Source: an uncultured Candidatus Saccharibacteria bacterium
GTDB lineage: Bacteria > Patescibacteriota > Saccharimonadia > Saccharimonadales > Saccharimonadaceae
NCBI GenBank assembly: GCA_963526325.1
Contig: CAURNC010000002.1
Coordinates: 67,149-131,148 of the forward strand
Length of the DNA stretch: 64,000 nucleotides
Direction: 5' to 3'
Made by a program: the position numbers and the translations under genes. Below are positions 7,481-64,000 of this stretch, in pieces (within the stretch, counting starts at the first letter, position 1; each line of letters begins with the position of its first letter). The notes under the pieces are model-generated. The model made no database searches, was not told the origin of the DNA, and worked only from the letters and a program-made list of their open reading frames with translations.

Positions 7481-7942
7481 ATGCATAAGCACTATGGTTT
7501 TACAATCGTCGAAGTATTGGTGGTCGTCTTGGTCCTCGGCATCTTGATGACCCTCGGTGGTCTGGCGTGGCGCACCGCTCGAGAAGACGCCATTAACAAT
7601 GAGAGCAAGACTGAATTATTAACCATCCAGAATGCCGTCGAAGAATATTACAGTCAAAATGGAGAATATCCGTGGCCTGCGTCCTGTAGTAAATACAGCT
7701 CAGCAACCAACCGCACATGCGACGCTGGCGAACTCAACCCGCTGTTAGTACCAAAATATCTCAAAGAATTACCGACAGACTGGCGCGGTAAGCACTACGA
7801 ATACACCGTCAACAAAAGCCCCGACAATCGCTATGGGCTACTGATGTACCGAGCTAACGGCACCAAATGTCGCGTCGGAAAAGGCATTCTGGCAATGTGG
7901 TGGAACACGCCAGCGCCAGCGGCTGAAAATTGCGATTTCTAA
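7481..7942 (+). CDS. Type IV pilin / pseudopilin (GspG-like)
   Basis: Prepilin motif G|FTIVEVLVVVLVLGIL; YYSQNGEYP; start moved to ATG 7481 after TATAAT. Confidence 0.9.
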   Translation: MHKHYGFTIVEVLVVVLVLGILMTLGGLAWRTAREDAINNESKTELLTIQNAVEEYYSQNGEYPWPASCSKYSSATNRTCDAGELNPLLVPKYLKELPTDWRGKHYEYTVNKSPDNRYGLLMYRANGTKCRVGKGILAMWWNTPAPAAENCDF

Positions 7943-8005
7943 TCATACCTTGCCCTAGCGTTTGGTCATTTTCCAAATGCGCCTGGTTTGGGGTACAATA
8001 GGGCA

Positions 8006-11658: not shown

Positions 11659-12143
11659 TACTTGGCGCGGACCTTTCTGTAGGCAAACCGTGCGCCCACT
11701 CGCCATTCGCCGTGAACGTCAGGATCAAACTGATGGATTTCACCATTTTTGATCTCTGAAACCACTGCCAGGGCAGGGTTATATGGCGCCAAGGTTCGGT
11801 AGAAAATCAAATCCTCCTCGGACTGTACTGTCATGCCAGGGAATACTTCTTGAAATTTTTGACGACCAAGGATATCAAAATAATCCGGTTGGTATTTAGG
11901 CGGATAGAACTCGTCCAACCTGAGTCCCATGCGCACTGCTATTTTCTTGACATCCGCCAGCGTCATGTTAGACGACGCGCGCAAATAGAGTAGCAACTGA
12001 TTGTTCGATGCCATAAATACCGTCGCTTGGGCCGTACGGCCAACATCAGCCAACGGCAAGATAAATCGCTTTACTGAGACATCAACATCAAACGCTTCGC
12101 TGATTAATGCTTCCAACTCCGACGCGGTCACTGTAGGCTTCAT
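11658..12143 (-). CDS. Hypothetical protein
   Basis: 161 aa ORF, TAAAAT 6 nt before ATG, translationally coupled to the ATPase. Confidence 0.75.
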   Translation of the reverse strand: MKPTVTASELEALISEAFDVDVSVKRFILPLADVGRTAQATVFMASNNQLLLYLRASSNMTLADVKKIAVRMGLRLDEFYPPKYQPDYFDILGRQKFQEVFPGMTVQSEEDLIFYRTLAPYNPALAVVSEIKNGEIHQFDPDVHGEWRVGARFAYRKVRAK

Positions 12144-12186
12144 GGCTTTATTTTACCATTTTCAATCGCACGCGTATACTGTAAGT

Positions 12187-15100: not shown

Positions 15101-15450
15101 GTAAGCCATCGCACTCCTGGAAGGAAACATCTGACTATGAAAAAATCAAGCTCCACAAATACCGCCAGCAACTGATGTTCTATCAGTTACTAGTCAAAAC
15201 ATCGCGTGATTATGGCAATTTCAGCTTCACCGGCGCCCGCCTACAGTTCGTCGAGCCGGACATGAAAACTGGCGATATCCTCAGCCTGGAAGATACGTTC
15301 TCCGAGGAGGAATTAGCTGAATTTGCGCGGCTCATCGGCGTCGTCTGGCGAAAAATCACCACTCTGGACCTGCCAGACATCTCTGGGTATTCCGCAGACT
15401 ATAAAGGTATGGTGCAGTTCGAAAAGGACTTATTAACAGAGGAAAGGTAA
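12187..15450 (+). CDS. UvrD/PcrA-family helicase with C-terminal PD-(D/E)XK nuclease
   Basis: AGPGTGKT, VDEFQD, GDDDQAIF, NYRS, TAHKSKGLEF, VAMTRAK; C-terminal GKLDLVD...DYKTG. Confidence 0.95.
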   Translation: MDFSTRYASLNANQRSAVDKIHGPLLVIAGPGTGKTELLSMRAAHILRQTDTLPSNILCLTFTDSGAVNMRQRLQQIIGEDAYKVAIHTFHSFGSEIINTNRQYFFRGADRQPTDELTQQQILQEIFEGMDWDNPLNAKNNDEFIYLKETLKTISEFKSNGLASEEIQHILDDVEQTITEISEAITQLFQTTIKKSTIPAFANVAEIAAAITPQPLPAAITPYANALALSMANAAQEALENDSTKPITAWKNAWCKKNAAGEFVLKDSESIARLRAVTHVYDQYRSALTQRGLFDYDDMILNVLDACKHQPDLRANLQEQYQFIMVDEFQDTNLAQLQLLFNLTGDEPEPNIMAVGDDDQAIFSFQGANVGNIQRFRQHYHDPAVIVLTDNYRSAEQILTTARSVITQGSDRLENTISDLSKQLTAHASSSGATVNLSRFMTPLDERAGIAKQIAHLITSGTPPEDIAVISRRHHELIELLPHLYQNNISVNYEHHDDILELDSIKALELVARIVISLHNNDLTNANSLLPELLAHPAFDFAATDIWKLSLAAWRNRQFWLEAMLTQTTFEPLAQWLLEQAKNVPNLTLEEHIDELLGLTETATNRALYTYYFSPGKLQSDPEAYLTTLEALRTLRQKLRDHYTEATPTLTQLLQFIDLHHLTKTRLTSIRPAAEHKSGSINLMTAHKSKGLEFPHVFIIGATDNIWGEKVRARSRLIRYPANLQLQPAGNNYDERLRLFFVAMTRAKQTLHISHSLTDTGGKDNLIASFLSSLQLDTSTIDTSETADATESLLTDWRARLTEPHGTTLQEVLAPILQHYKLSATHLNNFLDVSHGGPQGFLLNNLLHFPQAKSPSAAYGTAVHTCLQQLHDRFVADGNLPPRPEIMRLYTQTLAAQHLSPDDTKLFTEKGQSVLTAFLDAKQSSFTQQQLAELNFANQNSFVDQAQLTGKLDLVDIDKTAKTIYVTDYKTGKPSHSWKETSDYEKIKLHKYRQQLMFYQLLVKTSRDYGNFSFTGARLQFVEPDMKTGDILSLEDTFSEEELAEFARLIGVVWRKITTLDLPDISGYSADYKGMVQFEKDLLTEER

Positions 15451-15467
15451 TTATTTTCCATATATTG

Positions 15468-15496
15468 TTGCTATTTTTTACAGTTCGTGTTATGAT
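15468..15496 (+). promoter_or_regulatory. sigma70 promoter of the structured RNA
   Basis: TTGCTA-17 nt-TATGAT with extended -10 TG. Confidence 0.7.
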
Positions 15497-15928
15497 ATTC
15501 ATTAGCTTTTGTTCGTGGAGCTAACCCTGGTGAGATATCGCAAATGATATCAAACCCTGGTCATGCTTCGCACAAAAGCATGGGCTGAAAGGGGGTTAGC
15601 TCTTTTTCTATCGCCGCAACTCGCGGCAGAGAGGGGGTGAGACCCTTGGTGTTTTTCTCTTATCCCGTAGCATCAATGTATAGCTACGGAGATTATACCA
15701 CTGCAATGACATGCAGTGGTAGAAACCACCATGTTGCGTATAGGCGTCCTGGAGATGCCGGTACGCAGTTTAAATGCCCATACTGCGGGCATTTCATGGT
15801 GTAACACCACACAAATACGACAGTCGGGGTTTGTGCGACCCCGAAACCACTGACCTCCGCGGTCAGTAAAGGGCGTCTGTCCGCCCCTGGGGTGATTCGC
15901 CCAGCTGGTAGCCCAGAAAAGAATCACA

Positions 15929-16016
15929 GGACATATAGCTCTAATCGGCAGAGCGCCCGCGTCGACAACGGTGTCGACGCAATGGGAGGCTGCGGGTTCG
16001 AGTCCCGCTGTGTCCG
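15929..16016 (+). other. tRNA-like domain 1 (extended anticodon arm, no anticodon loop)
   Basis: Acceptor GGACATA/TGTGTCC; D arm GCTC/GAGC; T arm GCGGG-TTCGAGT-CCCGC; anticodon replaced by GCGTCGACA/TGTCGACGC hairpin. Confidence 0.75.
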
Positions 16017-16218
16017 CTTCGCGGTTGCATGCGCAATCACACGACCTCATCACCCGTGTGAAGCCGTATGTAAGCGAAAAAACTTGGGTGTTTCCACCAC
16101 TCCGCCCGAGTTTCATTGACTTCTCAGCTTTGTTTTGTGGTCCAATGGCGTACGACAAACCAAAGCGGGTGTATACCGCTACATCGAGAAGACCAATGTT
16201 TTCAACACAGAATGGTCA

Positions 16219-50185: not shown

Positions 50186-53100
50186 ATGATGAAACAACCG
50201 TATTCTATTGGATTAGATATTGGCACAAACAGCGTTGGCTGGGCAGTTATAAATGAAGGTTTTGATCTGCGCAAATACAAGCACCAAAACATGTGGGGCG
50301 CCCATTTGTTTGATGAGGCGCAAAAAGCAGCCACTCGGCGGTCATTTCGCTCATCGCGCCGGCGGCTTGCCAGACGAAAGCGCCGCGTCACACTGCTCCA
50401 GCAGATATTTAACGATGAAATTCAGAAAGTCGACCCGCATTTCTACCTCCGTTTATCCGAATCAATGCTCCATGTTGGCGACAAAAGTTCTACACTAGAA
50501 TTAGACGCCAACATTTTATTCGCCGACCGCTCTTTCACCGACAAATCATATAGAGAGAAATATCCAACAATTTATCATTTGCGCAGCGATCTATTTCACA
50601 ACTCTGCAAAACAAGATATTCGATTAGTCTACCTAGCGCTTCATCACCTTATAAAGTACCGCGGCAATTTCCTAATTGAAGGCGGAGTCGATAATGTAAT
50701 CTCTTCGTTTGATAGTCAAAGCTTGCAGACTTTCATGGAATTTATCGGCGCTGACGATTCGACAGCTCAAAAGATTAAGGCGACTTTGCTTGACCGTTCT
50801 CTATCGCGTAGTGCCAGAAAATCAGACATCATCAATCTACTACAGCCATCTCCTGACAACAAGAGGGCTGTCAGCGAAGCCGTCGGTGCAGCTATCGGCC
50901 TAAAATGGAACGCCAATAAACTATTCGAGGACGACTCTCTCGAAGTAAAAGGGGAGTTCTCGAATAAAAATTACGAAGAGCAACGAGATGAAATTGCGGC
51001 TGCAATCGGCGACGATCGCTATGAACTCGTAGAAACTTTAGAATCAGTCTACCAATGGACAATTTTCAGTCAATTCATCAGGAAAGATAGTTGTCTGTCC
51101 GACATTATGATTGAAAAATACGATGCCTATCGTCAAGATTTATCCGACCTTAAAGCGCTATTTCACGAATCTCTACCTAAAAAATACAAGACGTTTTTTC
51201 ATGGCGACGCCGCCGAATTTGAGCTATACAACAACCACAAACGAAACCTTGATGATTTATATAAATCTATCAAAAAACAACTCGGCGAAATTGCCAAGGA
51301 CAACCCGCGCTACCAGCGATTTGAGAAGCGGGCTGAGCTAGAGGAATTTCTTTCTAGGCAACGCATTCGTGATAACGGTACCATCCCGCATCAGATTCAC
51401 CAGTACGAACTCGAGAAAATTATCGACAATCAAGCACAATACTATCCGTTCCTAGCTCAAAATCGCAACAAAATCATCAGCATTTTTACATTCAAGCTAC
51501 CGTATTACATCGGGCCGCTCAAAACTGGCGGTAATTTTGCGTGGTCAGTCAAAAAGAAAGATGGCGTGATTTATCCGTGGAATTTCGACGAGATGATAGA
51601 CGATGAAGCTTCCGCTGAGAAATTCATTGACCGAATGCGCAACAACTGCACCTACCTACCAGACGAAGAAGTTCTTCCTAAAAACTCGCTGCTTTATCAA
51701 GAGTACGAAGTTCGCAACGAATTAAAGAACGTAACCATCAACGGCGAAAGACTGAGTTCTGACGTCCAGAACCGCATCGTTGACGAGTTATTCACCAAAG
51801 AGCCTTCAGTCACTTACAAAAAGTTAATTAAATATCTCTATGACAACCAGATATATAACACTGACTCTCTCATTATTTCTGGAACAGCCAAAGAGAAATC
51901 GTTTGCTTCATCGCGTAAGTCTTACCTTGATTTTACAAACAAAATCGGTATTGAGATTACGCCAAAAACTCAAAAAGCAATCGAAGAGGTCATCAAGTGG
52001 ATTACCTTGTTTGAAGATAAAAAGATTCTAGCCAAAAAATTACAGAAGTACAGTGATATCTTTGACAATAATCAGCTTCGCGCTATTTTGAAGCTAAATT
52101 ATAGCGGCTGGGGACGACTATCTCACAAGCTGCTTGACGGCATCACTGCGCACACGCCTTACGGAGAGCTGACCGTCATAAAGACGATGCGTAGCTCTAA
52201 AGATAACTTTATGCAGATCATCCAAAGCGATCGATACGAGTTCAAAAAGATTATTGACAATATCTTGTCGGCAGACCAGCGCACAGACATAGCCTACGAC
52301 GACATTAAAAAACTCGCCGGATCGCCGGGCATCAAACGCGCTCTGTGGCGCAGCGTTAGAATTGTTGACGAGATTGTCGACACAATCGGCTACGAACCAA
52401 AGCTAATCAGCATTGAGATGGCCCGCAATGAAGACGAGAAAGTTAGAACCAAAAGCCGATACGGCCAACTGGAAAAAATGTATAAGGATCTTTATGGCAA
52501 AGAATATACTAAATCTGATATAAAATCGCAATTGGCTAAATACAAAGACAAACTCGATAAGAAAAAGTATTATCTGTATTTCCTACAGAACGGCAAATGC
52601 GCTTATACGGGCGACCCGCTCGACATCGAAAACGATCTTAAAGACTGCGAAATTGACCATATTTTACCGCGCTCGTTAACAAAAGATGACTCACTAGACA
52701 ACACTGTCCTAGTGCTGCGCAAAGAAAACCAGCGAAAACTTGATGATTATCCTATTGCACCCGACATCCAAAATCACATGAGACCGATCTGGACGTCTCT
52801 GAAGAATGCTAAACTTATGTCGCAGCTTAAATTTCAACGCCTAACAAGTCAAAAGCAACTGTCTGAAGACCGCGTGGCTGGATTCGTCAATCGCCAACTC
52901 GTTGAGACACGACAGATCACCAAACATCTCGCCAGAATGCTGACCGAAAAATATCATGATTCATCGACAGAAGTGTTTACTATCCGCGCCGGTATGAGCT
53001 CTGAATATCGCCGCATTCATGACTTGCCGAAATGCCGCGAAGTCAATGACCTACACCATGCCAAAGATGCTTATTTGGCTGCAGTTCTAGCTCAATACGT

Positions 53101-54193
53101 AAAAATTCGCTATCCAAAACTAGATAACGCATTTATCTACGGTGAATACATGAAGTTCAAATCTAAAGAACAGACCGACACGGATCGTAGCAGCTTTATC
53201 CTCGCGTCAATGAACTATGACTTTACTAATACAAATACAGGTGAAATTATCTGGCAGAGTAAAACCGCACACGATGTCATCGACCGAACGATGAAATACA
53301 ATGACTGCCTGATTACAAAGAAAACTGAGATTGGCGACAATCAATTCTACGACCAGACTATTTACGGTAAAAATTCTGGCGCCACCATGATCACCAGAAA
53401 AGCGAACCTACCGGTCGATAAATACGGTGGCTATTCAGGGAGAAAAGCAGCCTATTTTATGGCTATAAGATATCTTAAACAGGTGCGTAACAAGGATGTT
53501 TTTGTAAACGAGATTATCAGCGTGCCAACTCAAATTTATACACTAGAAAAGACCAAGCCAGGCTCAATCAATGAGCATCTCCACAACAACTATAAGCAAG
53601 CTACAGTTCTTCTGTCCAAAATACCAATTAATCAAAAAATTGAATATGACGGCAATGAGCAATTCATCGTTGGCAGTAAAGAAGTTACTAATGCCAAACA
53701 GCTGAAATTACCTTACGACGTTGAATACGCCGTGGCAGTCGCTCTCAAGCAGGGAATTCCGCAAATCACGATCACAGAAGAACAGGCTGCCGACGACAAT
53801 AAACTACAACGCAAGCGCAATAGACAAATAGAAAGAAGAGATAGAGTTATTAGCGGAATAGAGAGGTTCTGGGAGATTTATACTGATAAGCTCACTAATC
53901 AGTACCAGCAATTTGGGAGCGTCGTCGAAAAAGCGAAGGTCACCAATAATGAATACCGGGCAATGCCTGTAGAAGATAAGATTAAGGCTATAGGACTAGT
54001 CTTGACTGCTACACATGCTGGCTCAGGGCGTGTAGATATGAAAAAGAGCTTTCCAAAACTAGGACTACCAGATGATTTTGGGAGAATGAAAGGTAAAAAG
54101 CTAGATCCGGCTAAACTAACCTTCGTTTACGAATCTATCACCGGACTGCACCGCCGAAAATTAGACGGAAAAACATTAGAGCAGGGCCGTTAG
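50186..54193 (+). CDS. cas9: Type II-A CRISPR nuclease Cas9
   Basis: RuvC-I GLDIGTNSVGWA, Arg-rich bridge helix, RuvC-II IEMAR, HNH DHILPRS..DDSLDN, RuvC-III HHAKDAY. Confidence 0.98.
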   Translation: MMKQPYSIGLDIGTNSVGWAVINEGFDLRKYKHQNMWGAHLFDEAQKAATRRSFRSSRRRLARRKRRVTLLQQIFNDEIQKVDPHFYLRLSESMLHVGDKSSTLELDANILFADRSFTDKSYREKYPTIYHLRSDLFHNSAKQDIRLVYLALHHLIKYRGNFLIEGGVDNVISSFDSQSLQTFMEFIGADDSTAQKIKATLLDRSLSRSARKSDIINLLQPSPDNKRAVSEAVGAAIGLKWNANKLFEDDSLEVKGEFSNKNYEEQRDEIAAAIGDDRYELVETLESVYQWTIFSQFIRKDSCLSDIMIEKYDAYRQDLSDLKALFHESLPKKYKTFFHGDAAEFELYNNHKRNLDDLYKSIKKQLGEIAKDNPRYQRFEKRAELEEFLSRQRIRDNGTIPHQIHQYELEKIIDNQAQYYPFLAQNRNKIISIFTFKLPYYIGPLKTGGNFAWSVKKKDGVIYPWNFDEMIDDEASAEKFIDRMRNNCTYLPDEEVLPKNSLLYQEYEVRNELKNVTINGERLSSDVQNRIVDELFTKEPSVTYKKLIKYLYDNQIYNTDSLIISGTAKEKSFASSRKSYLDFTNKIGIEITPKTQKAIEEVIKWITLFEDKKILAKKLQKYSDIFDNNQLRAILKLNYSGWGRLSHKLLDGITAHTPYGELTVIKTMRSSKDNFMQIIQSDRYEFKKIIDNILSADQRTDIAYDDIKKLAGSPGIKRALWRSVRIVDEIVDTIGYEPKLISIEMARNEDEKVRTKSRYGQLEKMYKDLYGKEYTKSDIKSQLAKYKDKLDKKKYYLYFLQNGKCAYTGDPLDIENDLKDCEIDHILPRSLTKDDSLDNTVLVLRKENQRKLDDYPIAPDIQNHMRPIWTSLKNAKLMSQLKFQRLTSQKQLSEDRVAGFVNRQLVETRQITKHLARMLTEKYHDSSTEVFTIRAGMSSEYRRIHDLPKCREVNDLHHAKDAYLAAVLAQYVKIRYPKLDNAFIYGEYMKFKSKEQTDTDRSSFILASMNYDFTNTNTGEIIWQSKTAHDVIDRTMKYNDCLITKKTEIGDNQFYDQTIYGKNSGATMITRKANLPVDKYGGYSGRKAAYFMAIRYLKQVRNKDVFVNEIISVPTQIYTLEKTKPGSINEHLHNNYKQATVLLSKIPINQKIEYDGNEQFIVGSKEVTNAKQLKLPYDVEYAVAVALKQGIPQITITEEQAADDNKLQRKRNRQIERRDRVISGIERFWEIYTDKLTNQYQQFGSVVEKAKVTNNEYRAMPVEDKIKAIGLVLTATHAGSGRVDMKKSFPKLGLPDDFGRMKGKKLDPAKLTFVYESITGLHRRKLDGKTLEQGR

Positions 54194-54194
54194 C

Positions 54195-55073
54195 ATGTCT
54201 TGGCGAACTGTCATCGTCAAGAATCGTTGCAAGCTAAGCTACAAAAACGACTACATGCTCATCATTAGCGATGGCAACGAAAAAGCGCTCCACATCAGCG
54301 AAATCGGCACTTTAATCATTGAAAATACTGCTGTCAATATCACCGCATATCTACTTTGTGAGCTGGCTCGCTACAAGGTAAAAATAATATTTTGCGACCA
54401 CCAACGCAATCCATACAGCGAGATAATACCGTATTACGGCGCGCATAATGCCAGCAAGCAAATGCGCCGCCAAAGCCAATGGCCTCAGATTACCAAAGAT
54501 AAAATCTGGCAGAGAATCGTTGCTCAAAAAATTATCAAGCAAGCTCAGGTAGTCTATAGAGAGACCGCCAATCAAACCTCCTGCGAAATACTTATGAATT
54601 TTGCCGCATCAGTATTACCCGGAGACACTACCAATCGTGAAGCGCATGCTGCGAAACTATACTTCAAAGAGTTGTTTGGTCCGCAATTTTCACGCGACAG
54701 CTCCAGCGACATAAACGCAGCGCTTAACTATGGTTATGCAATTCTCCTTTCAGCTTTCAACAGGGAAATTACTTCAGCTGGCTATTCAACAACTATGGGT
54801 GTTAACCACTGCAATGAATACAACCCTTTTAATCTCACCTGCGACCTAATGGAGTCATGCCGTCCTATCGTTGACCGTGAAGTGTATAAGTGTCGAAGTT
54901 TCGCATTTGACGACTTCTTCAAGAGTCGCCTCATTGATATTCTCAACCACAAAGTCATTATTCTTGGTAAAGAACAGTTCCTATCAAACGCGATCAACAT
55001 CTACGTAAAGTTATTTTTTAGAGCAATGGAAGAGGGCAGCGACAAAAATCTGCCCGAATACGAACTAATATAA
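54195..55073 (+). CDS. cas1: Cas1 (type II)
   Basis: MSWRTV, GDTTNREAHAA, NAALNYGYAIL, FNLTCDLME. Confidence 0.97.
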   Translation: MSWRTVIVKNRCKLSYKNDYMLIISDGNEKALHISEIGTLIIENTAVNITAYLLCELARYKVKIIFCDHQRNPYSEIIPYYGAHNASKQMRRQSQWPQITKDKIWQRIVAQKIIKQAQVVYRETANQTSCEILMNFAASVLPGDTTNREAHAAKLYFKELFGPQFSRDSSSDINAALNYGYAILLSAFNREITSAGYSTTMGVNHCNEYNPFNLTCDLMESCRPIVDREVYKCRSFAFDDFFKSRLIDILNHKVIILGKEQFLSNAINIYVKLFFRAMEEGSDKNLPEYELI

Positions 55074-55075
55074 GT

Positions 55076-55396
55076 ATGAAGGTAAGGTATATGAGAATGA
55101 TATTATTTTTTGACTTACCAATGGTAAGTGCTCGCGAACGCAAAATATATGCCACATTCCGCAAGCAACTCACCCAAGAAGGGTTTGTCATGATGCAACA
55201 ATCAGTCTATAGTAAACTAGTCCTTAATTCCACGAACGAAAAATTAACCCACGACAGACTCAAAAAAATTATACCCGACAATGGTATCATCCAACTATTA
55301 ACGATAACTGAGCGGCAATTCGCCTCAATGGAATACTTAGCAGGGGAGTATGAGGAATTATCAATTCAAACTACCGATAGGACAGTTGTTTTATGA
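55076..55396 (+). CDS. cas2: Cas2
   Basis: MRMILFFDLP, GFVMMQQSVY, ITERQF. Confidence 0.97.
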   Translation: MKVRYMRMILFFDLPMVSARERKIYATFRKQLTQEGFVMMQQSVYSKLVLNSTNEKLTHDRLKKIIPDNGIIQLLTITERQFASMEYLAGEYEELSIQTTDRTVVL

Positions 55397-56082
55397 AAAT
55401 CAACATTTCAGGATTCGATAATACGCTATCAATATCAGATGACGGTGGCATCGCGACCTTGGCTGTTCGTAATGACTTATTTTTCAGAAGCATTGTTGAA
55501 GATATACTTGATACATACACTAAAAGGGAAGAGAATAACCGCACTGTTGTTTACGACAGTGATCACACTCCACTGAATTTCACAAAAGACACTCTGGTTA
55601 TCACGGATATATATTCCTACGATCTAGCCAATCGAACTATCACAGCAGCCCTGTATAAAAACATCCATGACAATAGCGACATCGACATGGCCAAACTAGC
55701 ACAAATAGAAGCAGACATTTTGGATGTTCTTAGCACTATAAATACCAATTCCTCACAAAGTATAAACTATCAAACAGAGATATCTATCAATGACATTATG
55801 AAGATGACGCATGTAGAGCTGGAGGCGAATACAGGAAATAACTACATTGACAAGCTTTATGGTATTATAGATTCAGCTCAGCAATTATTATCAAAACGTT
55901 TAGTGATTTTGATAAACCAGCGCCAATTATTGTCGCATTGCGAGCTGCAGGCTCTTTTACAATATGTACAAAACAATCATTTTTCAGTACTTTTTATTGA
56001 GAAAAACTGTAAAGATAAGTTGAACGAGGAGAATATTCTCGTTATTGATGACGATTTGTATGATTTTAGTACCAATTCATAA
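55393..56082 (+). CDS. csn2: Csn2
   Basis: Position after cas2, 229 aa, LVILIN, VLFIE, VIDDDL C-terminus. Confidence 0.88.
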   Translation: MKINISGFDNTLSISDDGGIATLAVRNDLFFRSIVEDILDTYTKREENNRTVVYDSDHTPLNFTKDTLVITDIYSYDLANRTITAALYKNIHDNSDIDMAKLAQIEADILDVLSTINTNSSQSINYQTEISINDIMKMTHVELEANTGNNYIDKLYGIIDSAQQLLSKRLVILINQRQLLSHCELQALLQYVQNNHFSVLFIEKNCKDKLNEENILVIDDDLYDFSTNS

Positions 56083-56135
56083 TAACAACAGGGTAAGCGC
56101 TATCACGTTCACCCCTGTAAAACTTCACACTTGAG

Positions 56136-57411
56136 GTTTTACAGTAGTGTTATATTGAATGGTACTGAAACGCACCTATGGCTATTCAGTTTCGTTGTTG
56201 CGTTTTACAGTAGTGTTATATTGAATGGTACTGAAACTGGCGTACGCTATCGCCTGATGAGGTCAAAGTTTTACAGTAGTGTTATATTGAATGGTACTGA
56301 AACAAGAACGCAGAGCGACCGTTCAGCCACAACGTTTTACAGTAGTGTTATATTGAATGGTACTGAAACTTACGAACAGCAAGGAACGCAACTGGCTCAG
56401 TTTTACAGTAGTGTTATATTGAATGGTACTGAAACAAGGATATTACTCTTTGATTGTAGCATGCCGTTTTACAGTAGTGTTATATTGAATGGTACTGAAA
56501 CTGGAGCAGCAGCCGCAGCAGTAGCAATTGGGTTTTACAGTAGTGTTATATTGAATGGTACTGAAACGCTACTTTTTCGTCCAGCTCGCGGCAGGTCGTT
56601 TTACAGTAGTGTTATATTGAATGGTACTGAAACCCACCACAGCAAGCGTCAAGTATGGTTGTTGTTTTACAGTAGTGTTATATTGAATGGTACTGAAACC
56701 AGAAAGAAACGTAACGTCTTGAGTGGCTCGTTTTACAGTAGTGTTATATTGAATGGTACTGAAACGCGCCAGCTGAGCGAACCGTGACGGTTCAAGTTTT
56801 ACAGTAGTGTTATATTGAATGGTACTGAAACTCAGCAAGAGCATGCTGCCGGCGGTGAGCGGTTTTACAGTAGTGTTATATTGAATGGTACTGAAACATT
56901 GCTTAAAGATTTGCCGACGTTCAAAGCGTTTTACAGTAGTGTTATATTGAATGGTACTGAAACCAAGATCATGAAAGCAGTTACCGATGACAAGTTTTAC
57001 AGTAGTGTTATATTGAATGGTACTGAAACTTAATAACGTTGTAGCTTTCTTGCAGCAGTGTTTTACAGTAGTGTTATATTGAATGGTACTGAAACGTTGA
57101 GATATGCCTTGACAACGCGATACTTGTTTTACAGTAGTGTTATATTGAATGGTACTGAAACTGACAGTCTATCTACTACACCGAATAATAAGTTTTACAG
57201 TAGTGTTATATTGAATGGTACTGAAACCAAACCAAGCAAGAGGTCACCAAATGCAGCGTTTTACAGTAGTGTTATATTGAATGGTACTGAAACAGTCGAG
57301 GCGTAGCCATGAACGAGAACAGTGTTTTACAGTAGTGTTATATTGAATGGTACTGAAACTCAAAACTGCTAACGGCGAAAAGCACCGGCGTTTTACAGTA
57401 GTGTTATATTG
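56136..57411 (+). CRISPR. CRISPR array: 19 full 36-nt repeats, one truncated terminal repeat, 19 spacers of 30 nt
   Basis: Repeat GTTTTACAGTAGTGTTATATTGAATGGTACTGAAAC with exact 66-nt period from 56136 to 57390; leader ends TTGAG. Confidence 0.99.
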
Positions 57412-57675
57412 CTAAAGCCATTTAAAGTAGGCAACACACTGAACGTGGTTACCTACTTTAACGATTCGTCATCTGGCCGCACCAATCCTGCATATAATAT
57501 GTCGAGGCTTGATGATACGTCCGAGACGGGGCAATTACAGTCCACGAATCCTAATGATAGTATAGCAAACAACAGACGACCAAGGATATATATCAAGCTG
57601 TCAACGCTCAAATTATCGAAACTGACCTAGAAATCTTAACAGAGAGCAGAGTGCCTTAAATATACTACCTCCAGC

Positions 57676-58131
57676 TCAGGCTCTAAGCGCACGTACAGCC
57701 ACTGCCACCACATCAGCAAGCTCACTATATATTGGAAAATCAGGGTCATAACAGCGCACCTGTGTAATGATATCAAATCGTCTCGAATACTCTGGATGTA
57801 CGCCAATCACCACACGCGATCTGCTCTCAAGTTCCTTACCCAACTCAAACAGCGCGATAGGGCAGAGGGACTCCTTTGGAAACCAAAACAACACCACTCG
57901 CGCCCGCCTGAGGTATTCATACTCCCACTCTATCTGGTGCGTCGCCCCTTTGCCTTGAAAAGCCAGCGCTCTCTTACGACGTGGATTGGCCACTGCTATA
58001 TCTTGATTACCCAATAGGGCTAGCGCCTCCGCCTGCCAGTCTGGACAATTGGTAATACCTCCCGCCAAAAACAAATCTACCGACGGTACTACCTCGTGCA
58101 AACCCCTATTGTCAGGTGAAATAACTCTCAT
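57676..58131 (-). CDS. Nucleoside 2-deoxyribosyltransferase-like protein
   Basis: FLAGGITNCPDWQ, ANPRR, QIEWE, FWFP...PIALFELG. Confidence 0.8.
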   Translation of the reverse strand: MRVISPDNRGLHEVVPSVDLFLAGGITNCPDWQAEALALLGNQDIAVANPRRKRALAFQGKGATHQIEWEYEYLRRARVVLFWFPKESLCPIALFELGKELESRSRVVIGVHPEYSRRFDIITQVRCYDPDFPIYSELADVVAVAVRALRA

Positions 58132-58503
58132 ATCCCTATGATAATATCATCCAGCAAAAACAGCAACCGTATCTAAGGCGGCAGAGAAGTGATCCCTGCC
58201 CAGCTGACACGGCACCAACCTCGCCTTCCGTCAAACCCCACATGCGTTGGTCACTAAAGAATTATAGAACAAAAAGGGAACTTAAAATATTAGCATATAC
58301 CATACGCCAGCACATAGCCATAACATCCTGACATATTGCTATGGTTCGGTAAACAAGGAGCCTCAAGGCTCAAGATCCAGAAGCTAGAAATTCACGATAT
58401 AGACAAAATGATCGACAGACATACAGCAAAGGGCAAGCTAAGTAATTTTTAACCGACCAAACAGCACAGGCAACTAAAATCCAATTGTAACATATCAAAA
58501 TCA

Positions 58504-58556
58504 ATGAGTGTGTATTCATAAAAGAGAAATATTCTTAATGTCGCACAATGTATGTT
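58504..58556 (+). repeat. Left direct repeat with dif-like core
   Basis: 47/53 identical to 63537-63589; perfect TAATGTCGCACAATGTATGTT. Confidence 0.85.
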
Positions 58557-58667
58557 ACTAAAAAGCAAATTTATGTGATACGACAAGAGGTGAACTATTA
58601 GAAAAATCAAATTGTAAAATTTACATCTACTGTTATAATATAAGCAGTTATTAATAAAAGGGGACAT

Positions 58668-58859
58668 ATGAACAACATCGAAAACTTATGGGAAATAGTG
58701 CCATTCGCAATAATATCAATAGCGGTTTTCACTTTTATAATGATGATCGCATTGATATCAAACACAACTAATACAGAAAAAACTATTAAAGAATTACGCG
58801 ACATGATAGAAGATGAAATAGATAAAAGAACTAATCAAACTTTGGAATCTGATAGATAA
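58668..58859 (+). CDS. Small phage membrane protein on the opposite strand
   Basis: SD AAAGGGG, TGTTATAAT promoter, one TM plus coiled coil. Confidence 0.6.
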   Translation: MNNIENLWEIVPFAIISIAVFTFIMMIALISNTTNTEKTIKELRDMIEDEIDKRTNQTLESDR

Positions 58860-59568
58860 CAGAATATTGATTTTCAAACGTTTGATTTTTAATAATCATT
58901 TTATCAACCAAGTTCAAATCTGAAAGAGCATTATGATAAATAATAGGTTTTTCTAAATTACGAGATGACCAATAACGTTTTCTATTTGATACTAAAGGCA
59001 TATCTTTTGTTACATACTTTGTTAAATAACCATAAATATCTTTACCATCATCAATCTTCTGAGCATTCGTAAAACCATACCTGAAACTAGGCAAATTATA
59101 AACTCGCTTACTATTCATAATCACATTTGTAGGTTTAATTGGCTTTGGATAACCAGAAATAAGAGCATGAAAATGTATAGCACCATCTTTGTGAAACTCA
59201 GGAACTACAATGTACTTAAATGGATCATCAGCTTGCTGAGAAGCTAAACGAACACGAGAAAGCCAAGATTGCATTTTTGCAGCACAATGACTAAAACTAT
59301 AACGATCAACTTTTTTAGGATTAAATGTAAAGGTAACAAATAACTGAAAATCATTATTTAAAGTATAGTCACGAATAACTGACTTTGTACGACGAACAGA
59401 ACGCTGAATAGAATCTTCATCCTCTTTAAGTTTTCGTTTTAAATTTGATACGGATACTTTATCTACACCAGAAATTATATGAAGAGGGGAACGATAATTA
59501 ATAACTTTAAACATGTCTTTATACTCCTTTGTAATATCATGTATGTACTTATGCTCTGTAGTTTTCAT
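58831..59568 (-). CDS. Rolling-circle replication initiator (HUH endonuclease)
   Basis: Motif I FVTFTF, motif II AIHFHAL, motif III GYLTKYVTK; SD AGAGGGG before ATG 59568. Confidence 0.9.
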   Translation of the reverse strand: MKTTEHKYIHDITKEYKDMFKVINYRSPLHIISGVDKVSVSNLKRKLKEDEDSIQRSVRRTKSVIRDYTLNNDFQLFVTFTFNPKKVDRYSFSHCAAKMQSWLSRVRLASQQADDPFKYIVVPEFHKDGAIHFHALISGYPKPIKPTNVIMNSKRVYNLPSFRYGFTNAQKIDDGKDIYGYLTKYVTKDMPLVSNRKRYWSSRNLEKPIIYHNALSDLNLVDKMIIKNQTFENQYSVIYQIPKFD

Positions 59569-59597
59569 ATACCCCTCTATCTGTAAAAGATATGTTA

Positions 59598-59680
59598 AGT
59601 GTCCTTGTATCAAGTAGGCCCTTCGGGCCCCGCAAGGCCACAAACAGCACTACCGCCGAATTTGCCGACAGGCAAATTCG
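59598..59680 (-). other. Putative double-strand origin and neighbouring hairpins
   Basis: Minus-strand TACTTGATAC next to GGCCC-GAA-GGGCC; perfect 10-bp hairpin CGAATTTGCC/GGCAAATTCG. Confidence 0.6.
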
Positions 59681-59691
59681 CGATCTGAGTG

Positions 59692-60546
59692 TTAATTATG
59701 CTTTAAGCGAAATACTCCTTTCCTTTTATGGGATACTTTGACTTTTTTAATCGAAACAGTTGGTTGCGATGAGCGATAAACACCATCGGCCTGATCACCA
59801 GTAAACACAACCTGAAATGTATCGAACGAATCTCGAAGCTTTTTAGTATGAAAGAAAAAACCCATCTTCAACGGATTAGCACCCATCTGACGGCCATTGT
59901 CTGCAAAGTCAAGCTTTTTGGAATTATAAGCCCAGTAAACAGTAAAAATAGGTCCTGAACTAAAAGGTAAAGCAAACGTACGACATTTAAAGGCAAGATC
60001 TGAACGACGACGAATCGGCTTGGCAATCTGATCATAATCTTGAGAAGTAACAAGGTGTACGCGTCGCTGCTTGCGATTCTGCGCAGCTTGCTCGATTACC
60101 CACGGTGGAACATTACGGCTATCTTGATTAGAGAAATAATTTTGATATTCATCAGTTATTAAAATAACACCAAATTTACCATTACGAATATGTTTATTTA
60201 CCATAGCATATTCTTCTTTAGAACTATAGTATATATACTCATTTATAGTATCTATTTCTGACGCTAAAATCTGTAAAAACCTCTGGGAATCACCATCAAA
60301 ACGAAGTTGAACACGATCTTTAAGAATAATATTAGATACAACAATAGCTTTTGGATACCTCCTAGCAATCTTATGAAACATATGCATTAAAGTAATAGTT
60401 TTACCTGAACCTTGCTCACCATAAAACACTTGAACACCATTCGGGCGAAAATAATCAGGATCTCTAAGCTGAGCTCTATTCTCTTTAACAGCCTTTGGAT
60501 CAAAATTAAAATTTTTAGTAACAAATGAAATCATATTAGGCATCAA
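59692..60546 (-). CDS. Zot/pI-like assembly ATPase
   Basis: Walker A GEQGSGKT, Walker B ILITDEYQ, QNRK...TSQ...IAKPIR; context. Confidence 0.88.
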   Translation of the reverse strand: MMPNMISFVTKNFNFDPKAVKENRAQLRDPDYFRPNGVQVFYGEQGSGKTITLMHMFHKIARRYPKAIVVSNIILKDRVQLRFDGDSQRFLQILASEIDTINEYIYYSSKEEYAMVNKHIRNGKFGVILITDEYQNYFSNQDSRNVPPWVIEQAAQNRKQRRVHLVTSQDYDQIAKPIRRRSDLAFKCRTFALPFSSGPIFTVYWAYNSKKLDFADNGRQMGANPLKMGFFFHTKKLRDSFDTFQVVFTGDQADGVYRSSQPTVSIKKVKVSHKRKGVFRLKHN

Positions 60547-60818
60547 TTACCTCCTCCTGATCCTCTAATTTTATTGTAAAGCCACATACCTGGACGTAAT
60601 AACACAAAAAGTGAAAAGGCAGTAGCAACCATAGTAATCATTGCAGAAAAGAACTGTTCACCAACATAAATACGAACAATGGCAACTGGAGTAGCAAGAA
60701 AAGGAATAGCTTTAGACATAGCATCAACAAATACAACTGGTGCAGCAGGTATAGAAAATAGACCTAAAAGAAAATTAAGAATACCAAAAAATAGGCTTAA
60801 AATAAACTCAATAATCAT
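60543..60818 (-). CDS. pVI-like minor coat protein
   Basis: 91 aa hydrophobic protein between pIII-like and pI-like genes; overlapping stops and starts. Confidence 0.75.
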   Translation of the reverse strand: MIIEFILSLFFGILNFLLGLFSIPAAPVVFVDAMSKAIPFLATPVAIVRIYVGEQFFSAMITMVATAFSLFVLLRPGMWLYNKIRGSGGGN

Positions 60819-62515
60819 TACTTACGCCTCCTTTCCCAATCTCCAGTTTCACCAGTACGATCATCACGCCATCGAACATCATCAACATCATCATCAGCAA
60901 CATCATCAGCATCATCAAACTGAACACCTAGAAAACGCATCAAAAGACGATAGCAAACCCACAAGAAAGCAATAGATATACCAGCCCTAATAATAAGTTG
61001 CATGAAAGACCAAGTGCCTGGTAATTGATAGCGCCATCTACATAGCTCAATAGTCGCAGTAGAACCATAAATAGAAATAGGGGGAAGAGCACAGGTATCA
61101 TTGACAGCAGAAAACTGCAAAATAGACTTAAAAACATCAGATATAAATGTAACAGGGAAGAACAAAAATCCAAAAGAACGCTGCAAATTACTTAAAGTTT
61201 GATTAAACATAGCACCAACCCTATCAGAATCAGGGAAGAACAACCAAGAAATAGTACCAAAAAACCACTTAGTAATAGCATTAAAAAACCTAGACATATG
61301 GCAAGCTAAATCCATTGTTTTACATGGCACTAATTTATCAAAATCATAACCTAACTTGAATTCAGAATCTGGCGACTTATCCCACGGATTATCAAAACAA
61401 CGTTCAGGGGTAGATCCTGGACTAATCCAAGAGCCAGTATTAGGGTCAGTAGAAAAATGATTTATATCTTGAGTAGATGCACCTTGCCTAAAAACACATG
61501 TCTGATCTTTATTGGCATCATAGTTTAACCAAAAACCTTTGTCATCTACCTTAAAGTCAATAACTGCTGGCTGTACTCGATAAATTTTAGCATTCTCTCC
61601 ATGGTAAAAACCCATAGCAATAAGCCTATAATTGCCATATTCTACGTCAGACCACCATTCAGACAAAAGACCTTTACGCGAAAATTGACCAAATACCTCT
61701 TTATTTTGATCACCATCTTTATATAACCTCATATCTAAAAAGCTTAATTCTGGAACATCTGAATTTAATTTTTTAAAAGCTTCTACATTTAAACTAGCGC
61801 TTAAATCCATAACATTTGGTTTTTGTGATTTAGGATCAGTAGAGCTAATAAAAATAGGTAACTTTACTTTAGAGGCTTGGTTAATGTCACGTGGCAAATC
61901 CTGTTTAATATATGGTTCAGCATTTTTGGTTAATGTATAATCACCAGTATAGAAAAATAAAGCAGCCTTAGAATCAGGGTTTTCAAAAGAAATTTGAACA
62001 TTTAAATCTGTATAGCTTTTGGAATTTCCATAATAATTCGATACCGTGCCGCCATCAAATTTTGCAGAACGAAAACGACATTCATCTTTATCAGAATAAG
62101 TATCCAAATAAAAGATATCGCCACGATAATCTAAACGAACATCACAATTCTTTGAATAGTTAAAATAAAGTGAATAATAAGCATATGGCTTACCTTTAAA
62201 AGAACCAAAATGCTGGACATAAAGCCAAGTACCATTTTCAATGGCACGATTCATATCTTGTTTTAATCTATTAGCATTACGATCAATATCATCTTTATAA
62301 GCAGGATTCAAATTATCAACAATAGACGTAAATAAAGACTTAGTAAGATCTTTCTTTTCGCCACCATTTACCTGTAAATATAATTTATCTGTGGTATGAA
62401 ATTGCACTTTTTTGTCCTGTGCATATGCACTAGTAGAGAAAAAGAAAAAAGAGCCGATTACAAAGGTGAACACAAATAATTTAAATAAAGGTAATAATTT
62501 ATATAATCGACTCAT
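60818..62515 (-). CDS. pIII-like adsorption protein
   Basis: Signal peptide ending AYA, large soluble domain, Cys pairs, hydrophobic C-terminus. Confidence 0.75.
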   Translation of the reverse strand: MSRLYKLLPLFKLFVFTFVIGSFFFFSTSAYAQDKKVQFHTTDKLYLQVNGGEKKDLTKSLFTSIVDNLNPAYKDDIDRNANRLKQDMNRAIENGTWLYVQHFGSFKGKPYAYYSLYFNYSKNCDVRLDYRGDIFYLDTYSDKDECRFRSAKFDGGTVSNYYGNSKSYTDLNVQISFENPDSKAALFFYTGDYTLTKNAEPYIKQDLPRDINQASKVKLPIFISSTDPKSQKPNVMDLSASLNVEAFKKLNSDVPELSFLDMRLYKDGDQNKEVFGQFSRKGLLSEWWSDVEYGNYRLIAMGFYHGENAKIYRVQPAVIDFKVDDKGFWLNYDANKDQTCVFRQGASTQDINHFSTDPNTGSWISPGSTPERCFDNPWDKSPDSEFKLGYDFDKLVPCKTMDLACHMSRFFNAITKWFFGTISWLFFPDSDRVGAMFNQTLSNLQRSFGFLFFPVTFISDVFKSILQFSAVNDTCALPPISIYGSTATIELCRWRYQLPGTWSFMQLIIRAGISIAFLWVCYRLLMRFLGVQFDDADDVADDDVDDVRWRDDRTGETGDWERRRK

Positions 62516-62649
62516 TTTTTGTCTCCTCTATTTCTTAGAAAGATTGGAGAAAGCAATCGCTCAGTTAATGACTTTTTGGTGAAATGATCAAAAAACATAT
62601 CAGTTAGAGAATAAAGAGCAAAACCCAAAAGAATATCAAAAACAATCAC
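62512..62649 (-). CDS. 45-aa small phage protein (not in ORF track)
   Basis: GTG start after SD GGAGGTGA; MIVFDILLGFALYSLTDMFF...; stop overlaps the pIII ATG (ATGA). Confidence 0.65.
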   Translation of the reverse strand: MIVFDILLGFALYSLTDMFFDHFTKKSLTERLLSPIFLRNRGDKK

Positions 62650-62774
62650 TATTTATCACCTCCTGAGTAACTAATTCTTTTAATAAAATACCAACAGAAA
62701 CAGGCAGAGAATAGAATAACGAAAAATTTCACTAAAAACTTATCTAAAATCAATTGTAATTCTTGTGCTGACAT
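62649..62774 (-). CDS. 41-aa TM protein, pVII/pIX-like (not in ORF track)
   Basis: MSAQELQLILDKFLVKFFVILFSACFCWYFIKRISYSGGDK. Confidence 0.7.
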   Translation of the reverse strand: MSAQELQLILDKFLVKFFVILFSACFCWYFIKRISYSGGDK

Positions 62775-62781
62775 AAAATAC

Positions 62782-62931
62782 CTATTTAGAACTGGTTACT
62801 GAATATAAAGACTTGAATACAATATCTAAAACAATCTTTACACCGGCACCAACTGCAATAATAGCTAACAGGGAAGAGAAGTTATTAGATATCGTAGTAG
62901 TAATTAATTGAACAATCTCTATAGTTTTCAT
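62782..62931 (-). CDS. 49-aa coat-like protein (not in ORF track)
   Basis: MKTIEIVQLITTTISNNFSSLLAIIAVGAGVKIVLDIVFKSLYSVTSSK; resembles the major coat. Confidence 0.7.
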   Translation of the reverse strand: MKTIEIVQLITTTISNNFSSLLAIIAVGAGVKIVLDIVFKSLYSVTSSK

Positions 62932-62950
62932 AAATTATATTGAACATGAT

Positions 62951-62970
62951 GAGGGGGACTGAGCCCCCTC
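62951..62970 (-). terminator. Hairpin right after the major coat gene
   Basis: GAGGGGG / CCCCCTC stem; weak U tract. Confidence 0.6.
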
Positions 62971-62977
62971 GTGGTGG

Positions 62978-63136
62978 CTAGAACTTACCTTTAAGTCCTC
63001 GGTTACCAAAGCTACGGAAAAGCTTCAAACCGACGCCAAAGCCAATCAAGATCGCCAATGCCGGCCAGTTTTGAGTAAAATAGCTAATGACGGTAGTAAT
63101 GATTGATGTTGCGTCTGTTGCTTCAATCAGCTTCAT
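62978..63136 (-). CDS. Major coat protein, pVIII-like, 52 aa (not in ORF track)
   Basis: MKLIEATDATSIITTVISYFTQNWPALAILIGFGVGLKLFRSFGNRGLKGKF: acidic N-terminus, TM, basic C-terminus; SD AAGAAAGGA. Confidence 0.85.
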   Translation of the reverse strand: MKLIEATDATSIITTVISYFTQNWPALAILIGFGVGLKLFRSFGNRGLKGKF

Positions 63137-63283
63137 GCTCTGATTCCTTTCTTGTAGCTTTGTTAATTATATTATGGGGAAATCGCCACGCCCGCTACAA
63201 ATGGCGAATGGTGGCGTGTGAGGTCTTACGTCGCTTAGTCAATATCGCATTGATACCACCTAGAACAAAAAGAGAACTAACTA

Positions 63284-63490
63284 TTACAGAATAGGCTGAA
63301 TAGGCTTTGCAACTGTAATATCAAGAATTGCTAATTGCTCAGATGAGAGAAAAATACGCTGAGTATAGGTTTTATTATCTGGCATAATCCATTCCAAAAT
63401 CAAAACAGAGTATTTTTTACCAGCTTTTGAAGTTTGATCACGCAAGATATATGCACGTGATAGGTGAGAAATAATATTGTCAGAGTTCAT
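63284..63490 (-). CDS. Putative ssDNA-binding protein (pV-like)
   Basis: 68 aa beta-rich, TSKAGKKYSV hairpin; SD AGAAAGGA; follows Rep on the circular map. Confidence 0.6.
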   Translation of the reverse strand: MNSDNIISHLSRAYILRDQTSKAGKKYSVLILEWIMPDNKTYTQRIFLSSEQLAILDITVAKPIQPIL

Positions 63491-63536
63491 TACTTAAGAA
63501 ATCCTTTCTATGATGAACATTTAAATTATTGATAGC

Positions 63537-63589
63537 ATGAGTATACATTCATAAAAGAGAAATATCTATAATGTCGCACAATGTATGTT
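63537..63589 (+). repeat. Right direct repeat with dif-like core
   Basis: Copy of 58504-58556; continues ATGTCGCACAA-TGTATG-TTTTACGAAAT. Confidence 0.85.
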
Positions 63590-64000
63590 TTACGAAATAT
63601 ATAGGAGATAACCATGTATGATAATGAAGTGCGGCACATATAGCCATATAAGGATATATCCAGCTAACTAAGCAGGGGCTTTGGAGTCTACCATCTTCTA
63701 CTGCGCGAACAAATTGTAACTTTTGCTCTTATCATTACTCATCATACACTGTGTCTTGAAATATAAGTATATACCCACACGCTTGTATGGCTCCTGAAAG
63801 ACCCATGCAGTAAAACTACAAGCGCCCAACGTAGTATTTACTACATTATGCCGTGATAAGTTTTCCACATTGCAACATCTTGGATGATCGACCTGTATTT
63901 GACTTTTTTCTTTTTTATTCCCCCGCTCTGTTTTTTGCGGACCGCCTATATTTGACTTTTCGGTTTTTGCATATTGTAATATATATTTTTTGCTATTCTC

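Follow-up and report, generated by a model that had tools for sequence, protein, structure and literature searches.

The window analyzed here, a stretch of 64,000 nucleotides (nt) from an uncultured Candidatus Saccharibacteria bacterium, covers positions 67149–131148 of contig 2 in a genome of 717,111 bp (six contigs, rated 92.1% complete). It contains a unit of 5,033 bp delimited by a 53-nt direct repeat at 58504–58556 and 63537–63589, the two copies being identical at 47 of 53 positions and spaced by 5033 from start to start. The repeat brackets nine intact genes, all on the minus strand, and one open reading frame (ORF) of 63 amino acids (aa) on the plus strand. The GC content of the unit is 0.337, compared with 0.484 for the remainder of the window, and the unit occurs once in the genome. 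We consider it very likely that this unit is an inovirus-like prophage. An earlier note on this DNA had described a filamentous prophage of 5033 bp with nine intact genes in the circular order Rep, attachment site (att), a protein resembling single-stranded DNA (ssDNA)-binding proteins, major coat, three tiny ORFs, pIII-like protein, pVI-like protein, pI, and origin; the repeat, the frames, and the overlaps between them bear this layout out. The features of the unit are as follows.

58504..58556: attL, the left copy of the 53-nt repeat, host-type throughout
58668..58859, plus strand: single-pass membrane protein of 63 aa with a charged tail, the sole opposite-strand gene; no family match
58831..59568, minus strand: Rep, HUH rolling-circle initiator, 245 aa from the ATG at 59568 (the ORF extends to a TTG at 59643); PF23343, 63.3 bits against a cut-off of 27.8; phrog_3419
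59569..59691, minus strand: candidate origin with two GC-rich hairpins, ACTTGATA (59608–59615) lying in a hairpin loop
59692..60546, minus strand: pI/Zot-type assembly ATPase, 284 aa, without a membrane segment; PF05707 (Zot), 24.3 bits against a cut-off of 20.3; phrog_197
60543..60818, minus strand: p91, which occupies the pVI position, has two membrane segments, and is translationally coupled to pI; no family match
60818..62515, minus strand: p565, pIII-like, with a signal peptide (AYA/QD), an anchor at residues 503–531, and an acidic tail
62512..62649, minus strand: p45, single-pass membrane protein by hydropathy
62649..62774, minus strand: p41, single-pass membrane protein
62782..62931, minus strand: p49, coat-like, one membrane segment
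62978..63136, minus strand: major coat protein, 52 aa, without a leader and with a basic C-terminus; PF19199 (Gp8), 28.6 bits against a cut-off of 24.6; phrog_1646
63284..63490, minus strand: p68, 68 aa, putative ssDNA-binding protein in the gV position, first gene of the operon
63537..63589: attR, with six phage-type differences in its first 32 nt, the last 21 nt being identical to attB

The 5,033-bp unit is foreign DNA whose insertion was precise: in sister genomes, the site is empty. Its left and right flanks are, respectively, 91–97% and 92–97% identical to those of eight same-genus genomes, and in all eight the two flanks stand exactly 53 nt apart (in the eighth, G324, by coordinates only). 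The gap, read as sequence in seven of the sisters, consists of one repeat copy, identical to attL in six and with one mismatch in the seventh. The search with pI was negative in all 11 sampled congeners, and a DNA search gave a weak Rep-like match in one of 21 congeners and nothing else. Since the eight sisters are empty and both searches of congeners returned little or nothing, the acquisition of the prophage looks recent.

Three hallmark proteins, Rep, pI, and the major coat protein, exceed the curated Pfam cut-offs and also match the PHROG replication, Zot-like, and major-coat families. The Rep motifs FxTxT, HFH, and YxxKYxxK are invariant in all 14 aligned sequences; the family of this protein, PF23343, is presumably not that of the Ff gene II product. 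In pI, the Walker A motif and the hydrophobic-DE stretch of Walker B are invariant in 13 aligned sequences. The other six same-strand proteins show no family match at useful E-values in Pfam and PHROGs (and, for five phage proteins, NCBIfam). By content, the coding strand of the unit specifies five small membrane proteins, and there is a large secreted protein that is anchored at its C-terminus. Starts and stops overlap by 1 or 4 nt at p41/p45, p45/p565, p565/p91, and p91/pI, and a Shine–Dalgarno-like purine run precedes seven of the nine minus-strand genes. An Atlas search gave a weak lead (0.85) to a viral cluster in which Hofneiviricota is the most frequent phylum.

The 123-nt spacer between pI and Rep is strongly structured: its ssDNA fold has an energy of −27.5 kcal/mol, compared with −13.6 ± 2.55 for shuffled sequences (z −5.46; none of 200 shuffles as good). 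The ssDNA folds of the p68–coat spacer, the att regions, and the region after attL are no better than those of shuffles. Six of 14 elements (the window's own and those of the related loci L114, L022, L023, L025, and L027) have the octamer ACTTGATA in the loop of a hairpin that closely precedes rep, and it was not found in the other eight; the octamer resembles what we take to be the nick-site word of the phiX174/pC194 class of two-tyrosine initiators, a resemblance to be read as a lead only. Both the fold and the recurrent hairpin agree with the earlier placement of the origin, and this intergenic region is the likely replication origin, as far as can be judged from sequence.

Among the structural candidates, the coat-like p49 may be a second major structural subunit. 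For p565, only the last ~100–325 residues (mostly 130–170) match the related proteins, and the N-terminal part does not; a conserved C-terminal and a variable N-terminal part are the pattern expected of an adsorption protein. The AlphaFold2 (AF2) model of p565 has a predicted local distance difference test (pLDDT) score of 47.5 and is unusable. In p68, the serine of the N-terminal DNIIS..R stretch is invariant, and D, N, and R are retained in at least 90% of 14 homologues.

Families of recombinases, helix-turn-helix proteins, and secretins were not found in the 10 ORFs of the unit (nine on the minus strand and the plus-strand 63-aa ORF) scanned against Pfam and PHROGs, nor was the secretin family PF00263 found in the 92%-complete genome, in line with the earlier claim that the prophage has no integrase, repressor, or secretin. 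The same note had called it minimal, which holds in a relative sense: at 5,033 bp the unit is small, but circular Inovirus sp. genomes of 4.2–4.5 kb are among its nearest matches. A promoter-like sequence, TTGTAA-16-TATAAT, is present at 58612–58639, ahead of the plus-strand ORF, and L114 has an 89-aa opposite-strand ORF in the same place, with a similar hydrophobic N-terminus and charged tail as judged by eye. The promoter and terminator scan performed no better than on shuffles.

Related loci and circular forms

Relatives of pI are present in 20 of 300 other genomes of the family and, with the window's own genus counted, in 15 of 95 genera. Detailed inspection of 12 family loci (one of them incomplete, as it reaches a contig end) showed a common order of p68-like protein, coat, p49-like protein, small membrane ORFs, a large ORF (337–605 aa), an ORF of ~90 aa, pI, and Rep; eight of the 12 have an extra ORF of 88–118 aa between pI and Rep. 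The same gene order is seen in the closest cousin, L114, with identities of 70% for pI, 79% for the coat, 80% for p49, 65% for p41, and 59% for both Rep and p68. IMG/VR contributes 48 related loci; L193 and L194 reach 59% and 58% identity in pI, respectively, agree with the element in gene order, and have the host-type arm of its att core, and none of the IMG/VR relatives is close to the element at the DNA level. Likewise, a DNA search of 400 family genomes revealed no close relative and no convincing spacer match, the best short matches being 25–28 nt at 93–96%. The best conserved protein of the element is p49, whose identity is 80% also in L193, where the Pfam-recognized coat has 55%.

Single-protein pI scans of the genome and viral contigs returned nothing, and it was the alignment-based scans that found relatives: in named genomes these yielded 164, of which 78 loci were kept. 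The nearest pI relatives come from Candidatus Saccharibacteria, Saccharimonadales, Nanogingivalis gingivitcus (TM7 G6), Nanosyncoccaceae, and Saccharimonas; relatives from Bacilli, Clostridia, and Tenericutes are at 28–31% identity. For a quick pI tree, the three of the 127 loci without a full ORF were dropped, and the window was added to the remaining 124; the tree is unrooted, and its long-branch joins are flagged. All 17 rows labelled Saccharimonadota fall into one 45-row clade that includes the window and has an SH-like approximate likelihood-ratio test (SH-aLRT) value of 99; the other 80 rows are Bacillota (41), Mycoplasmatota (3), Bacteroidota (3), and unlabelled for the rest. A Saccharibacteria host, as proposed earlier, is thus supported both by the nearest pI relatives and by the tree. 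As judged from pI and gene content, this is a clade of predicted small secretin-less inovirus-like phages specific to Saccharibacteria, catalogued and uncharacterized.

The ATPase is short (~250–280 aa) across the 124 loci and the window, as compared by ORFs. No segment reaches the hydropathy threshold of 1.6 in 41 of the 45 pI rows of the window clade and in 67 of the 80 others; a subclade of 12 rows differs in having a strong membrane segment at the N-terminus.

Exact terminal overlaps of 74–127 nt, as in circles, are found in 6 of the 48 IMG/VR contigs, three of them in the pI clade of the window. The circles of this clade are L195 (4,928 nt), L202 (4,902 nt), L204 (5,454 nt), L127 (5,084 nt, from the genome collection), and L241 (4,982 nt, from a metagenome); the metagenome scan gave one 36%-identical circle. 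The L204 circle is 84–90% identical over its whole length to the prophage of L033 and is permuted relative to it exactly at the att core, which for the family links a free circle to an integrated copy. Five phage pieces were recovered from the public DNA sequencing run X1, which contains a small share of the element, with 20 differences in 1,262 nt, and two flank pieces from the same run differ by ~11% (at low depth); this hints at the same phage with a different host strain or as a free form. Two other runs of the same study were near-empty, and no RNA run was listed as containing the element.

An additional gene is seen in L030 between Rep and att (5112–5621 of that locus); it matches DUF2726 at 83 bits and, more weakly, restriction-endonuclease-like families. 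This cargo gene, of 167–175 aa, has apparent counterparts in L032 and L033 (N-termini compared by eye) and is missing from the element of the window.

Proposed life cycle and alternative explanations

The locus is best explained, and we hold this with considerable confidence, as a small filamentous ssDNA phage, inovirus-like and of the Tubulavirales type, whose genome is integrated into that of its Saccharibacteria host; that the element is still able to replicate and form virions is a weaker claim, and one we consider somewhat probable. The identification as a filamentous prophage, already made in the earlier note, is upheld by the three hallmark families, the gene order, the size, the empty sister sites, and the syntenic cousins, some of them circular. 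Of the features that mark inoviruses, the element has the pI/Zot ATPase, the short coat, the HUH Rep with a structured origin, and a size in the range of 5–15 kb with unidirectional modules.

In the proposed cycle, Rep would nick ACTTGATA in the hairpin upstream of its gene and start rolling-circle synthesis of the coding-sense strand, which p68 would coat. The soluble pI ATPase, together with the small membrane proteins, would then thread the DNA through the single membrane, with coat proteins replacing p68, and p565 might cap the filament and bind the receptor.

Several observations weigh against this reading. The AF2 model of p68 (pLDDT 86) has the topology strand–strand–strand–helix, which is not the oligonucleotide/oligosaccharide-binding (OB) fold, and its best Protein Data Bank matches are weak (COMM, Z 5.2; Pur-alpha, Z 3.9; PC4, Z 3.6; Foldseek E of at least 0.07). 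Pur-alpha and PC4 bind single strands, and such modelled similarity gives a hint only. Of the earlier designation of p68 as SSB-like, the gV position and the size stand, but the modelled fold does not agree. The maximum hydropathy of pI is 0.78, which means no membrane segment, and a canonical pI has one. Neither p565 nor p91 shows detectable homology to pIII or pVI in Pfam and PHROGs: what supports the pIII-like label is topology, position, and conservation pattern, and the pVI-like label rests on position, size, and two hydrophobic segments, but not on any family match. The low-depth contigs of run X1 contain no informative junction, and neither reads nor junctions nor particles attest to a free form of the window's element.

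The last of these points would also be expected if the prophage were truly inserted but cryptic or domesticated, and now unable to excise, replicate, or make particles. Such a state, which we regard as rather improbable, would be consistent with the lack of any detected excision-factor or regulator gene in the unit and with the six differences of attR from attL; some Xer-exploiting phages, moreover, use only one strand-exchange pathway, and if the crossover here did likewise, excision may be impossible. It accords poorly with nine open genes with coupled starts and intact catalytic motifs, with an insertion that is recent and absent from eight sisters (flank identities of 87–97%), and with the finding of near-identical pieces in another run and of more distant clade members as circles; CTX-type phages, in addition, produce progeny by rolling-circle replication from the integrated copy, without excision. 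The integrated state itself could be an artefact, a free circle having been threaded into the chromosome path by the assembler via the shared 21-nt identity, and a false path through this core would indeed give the observed attL/attR pattern. The same integrated layout is, however, seen at the same kind of site in five other genomes, including the one-contig assembly L026, and in tandem in another, and an exact repeat of 21 nt is shorter than the final-stage k-mers of most assemblers; we give this explanation very little credence. A rolling-circle plasmid or integrative element with a borrowed Zot-like ATPase and no virion appears just as improbable: matches of the Rep family also cover plasmid and ssDNA-virus initiators, and family assignments exist for only three of the nine same-strand genes, but the Gp8 coat scores above its cut-off, and a second coat-like protein, a protein with signal peptide and anchor in the pIII position, and an Ff-like order are conserved across the clade.

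The inovirus-like prophage may be compared with known systems. In Ff phages, the order is replication, ssDNA-binding, coat and small membrane proteins, adsorption protein, small membrane protein, and pI. The element is similar to Ff (M13, fd, f1) in its modular order, one transcription direction, overlapping starts and stops, and structured intergenic origin; it differs in having no secretin gene, a pI of 284 aa without a membrane segment, a coat without a leader, a p68 that is not modelled as an OB fold, and a genome that integrates. The diderm-type (Ff/Pf) pairing of a pI membrane segment with a secretin is found neither in the element nor in the genome. A tblastn search with pI at E ≤ 1e-3 gave 19 phage records, none of them of an Ff-type phage. 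Propionibacterium phage B5 and Clostridium phage CAK1 are small inoviruses of Gram-positive hosts and, compared by description only, share with the element a monoderm host, a genome of 5–7 kb, and the lack of a secretin; neither was detected by the pI search at the same threshold. The nearest deposited phages by pI are porcine 'Inovirus sp.' and rodent-faeces 'bajarodino virus' GenBank genomes (4–9 kb), which are of similar size and have a short ATPase; their pI is only 25–34% identical over 60–85% of its length, and the GenBank records themselves are outside the pI tree.

Phages of Saccharibacteria and other bacteria of the candidate phyla radiation (CPR) are barely known. A full-text literature search retrieved no description of a filamentous phage of Saccharibacteria, the phages described in the papers searched being tailed. 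In Roux et al. (2019; PMC6813254), the host range of inoviruses is extended to CPR, with nine CPR species listed in supplementary file 5 and a Magasanikbacteria genome as the named example. Parts of Shaiber et al. (2020; PMC7739484) report an inovirus detector run on oral TM7 and nine prophage groups, whose type is not named there; the words 'Zot', 'zonular', and 'filamentous' were not found in 11 supplements of that paper. A portion of PMC13532340 reports that unidentified filaments abound in dental wastewater and that the phages predicted for Saccharibacteria are all tailed, and a portion of PMC13059738 describes a filamentous phage assigned to Methylophilaceae. The earlier statement that no experimentally characterized example was known in this lineage agrees with the literature searched, but the 48 IMG/VR relatives and the nine CPR species of Roux et al. 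(2019) lower the novelty. A delimited 5-kb replicon with attP, attB, a candidate origin, and a conserved single-copy target has what a small integrating or replicating vector needs, which is of value as the genetics of Saccharibacteria is only beginning.

Attachment site, integration, and genomic neighbourhood

Two core sites are present at the ends of the unit.

58538..58565, minus strand: hybrid core at attL, made of the shared arm TTGTGCGACAT, the spacer CATACA, and a degenerate phage-side arm
63571..63598, minus strand: intact dif-shaped host site, ATTTCGTAAAA-CATACA-TTGTGCGACAT

Read on the minus strand, the host site consists of two 11-nt arms, inverted at 8 of 11 positions, around a 6-nt spacer; attP keeps the spacer and the TTGTGCGACAT arm. 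In the hybrid core, the phage-side arm matches the inverted shared arm at 4 of 11 positions. As the last 21 nt of attR equal attB and the first 32 nt contain the six phage-type differences, the crossover is placed within TAATGTCGCACAATGTATGTT. The 28-mer core, allowing up to three mismatches, occurs exactly once in 24 of 41 same-genus genomes (the window's own counted) and not at all in the reversed control; core variants among congeners keep the arms and have the spacer changed to GGTACA. With a looser two-arm pattern, no second chromosomal site with these arms was found above the control level. No tRNA was found near att, and the Rfam scan of 56000–64000 gave one sub-threshold snoRNA-like match and nothing else, so that att lies outside known RNA genes.

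Five integrase-less cousins (L023–L027) are flanked by repeats of 25–31 nt that hold ATTGTGCGAC, and L033 by one of 21 nt; in L114, too, a host arm is paired with a degenerate one. One cousin from another genus, L028, encodes its own tyrosine integrase of 286 aa (L028 5198–6173; PF00589, 98.6 bits), and its prophage is flanked by a 47-nt repeat overlapping tRNA-Ala, rather than located at a dif-shaped site. L030 contains an exact tandem duplication of the prophage (5002–16054, period 5,517 nt), and in L114 a second att core is followed by a diverged p68 remnant (8248–8532); together these suggest repeated integrations at the same site.

One conserved recombinase, with an open frame of ~295–339 aa, is encoded in 36 of 40 congeners. 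That of a sister genome scores 236 bits with the XerA model (cut-off 220) and ~245 bits with both XerC and XerD, which is below their cut-offs. We lean towards integration by this single Xer-type recombinase of the host, because of the shape and uniqueness of the site and because the integrase-bearing L028 uses tRNA-Ala instead. The host enzyme would join a dif-shaped attP, sharing one arm and the spacer with the host site, to that site by a crossover in the shared 21 nt.

A number of findings speak against host Xer or against a plain dif. No tyrosine recombinase was found in the window's own assembly; the entire 3.5-kb Xer neighbourhood of two sister genomes is missing from it, hence the missing gene is read as an assembly gap. 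On the window contig, GC skew does not switch at the site, staying negative over 125 kb in one direction and 22 kb in the opposite one. In a complete congener of 771,907 bp, the skew is positive over ~150–490 kb, the site is at 375,103, ~115 kb from the switch, and the skew near it merely weakens, from ~0.23 to ~0.05. In three complete congeners dnaA is ~230–250 kb from the site, about a third of the circle. This position away from the skew-defined terminus, the absence of an Xer gene from the assembly, the presence in the genome of RecA and of one 546-aa serine recombinase (contig 5 at 36465), and a repeat that at 53 nt is longer than an Xer core would all suit integration by other means, i.e., RecA acting across the 53-nt similarity, strand transfer by Rep, or another host recombinase, such as the large serine one. 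Such a route seems to us unlikely, though not strongly so. In six cousins the repeat is only 21–31 nt long and always centred on the same arm; attB has the shape of two arms and a 6-nt spacer, with arms conserved and spacers variable across genomes; and the integrase-bearing cousin is at a different site. Rep-mediated integration is disfavoured since the candidate nick site lies ~1 kb from attP and is unlike it, and the att sites of serine recombinases share little beyond a dinucleotide.

Filamentous prophages that exploit the host Xer system (integrative mobile elements exploiting Xer, IMEX) include CTX-phi, VGJ-phi, TLC-phi, and the Cf1c type. The element is similar to these in lacking its own recombinase, in an attP with one good and one degenerate arm, in having one intact and one hybrid flanking site, and in the tandem copies of its cousins. 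Unlike them, it belongs to a host lineage with a single Xer-type recombinase, not a XerC/XerD pair; its target lies away from the skew switch, about a third of the circle from dnaA; and a private 17-nt motif is found both beside the host site and in the phage. The element thus resembles an Xer-exploiting prophage but fails one defining feature, a target at the replication terminus. For Xer biology, the question posed here is that of a single-Xer lineage with a unique dif-shaped site away from the skew-defined terminus.

The motif, TAGAACAAAAAG(A/G)GAAC, has three copies in the 717-kb genome, all in one orientation:

58265..58281, plus strand: host-flank copy, GGGAAC variant, 239 nt left of attL
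63261..63277, plus strand: phage copy, TAGAACAAAAAGAGAAC, just 3' of the p68 stop codon
contig 2, 131153–131169: third copy, 5 nt past the window end and 416 nt right of attR

Among 41 congeners, 37 have one or two copies, and the reversed control has none; wherever the positions of motif and dif-shaped site were both listed for a genome, the two are within ~0.3–0.4 kb of each other. The same three-copy layout is seen in L024, a cousin in another genus. The third copy lies ~50 nt past the stop of an ORF that is weakly FtsQ/DivIB-like (16.4 bits, below the cut-off). A tentative joint reading, which we think improbable, is that the dif-shaped site would be a dedicated, conserved landing pad rather than a dimer-resolution site. 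The 17-nt motif, seen only next to this site and within the phages, would then be an accessory element to which a host factor or the phage p68 binds, and would in this way govern Xer-type integration and excision. The context of the site is the FtsQ/DivIB-like gene next to it and, in two of the genomes examined, a CRISPR-Cas locus as well. If true, this would be an Xer-exploiting system with accessory sequences common to phage and host, in a single-Xer lineage. That the left flank is a decayed older prophage was considered and is not supported: the stretch from the repeat to the motif aligned to the phage no better than 31 of 300 shuffles, and tblastn returned nothing.

Directly to the left of the prophage, at 50186–57411, is a locus of clustered regularly interspaced short palindromic repeats (CRISPR) of type II-A with Cas9 (1335 aa), Cas1, Cas2, and Csn2, and an array of 20 repeats of 36 nt and 19 spacers of 30 nt. 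None of the 19 spacers matches the prophage or the examined cousins (the 12 cousin loci included). A CRISPR array and cas2 are also found beside the prophage of L114, hence this neighbourhood may be an insertion hot spot. Entry via type IV pili, suggested in the earlier note, is a conjecture; the genome does encode two PilB-type ATPases. Between the CRISPR array and att, at 57676–58131, there is a nucleoside 2-deoxyribosyltransferase-like gene (PF15891, 66 bits), located where the GC content is locally raised (0.51).

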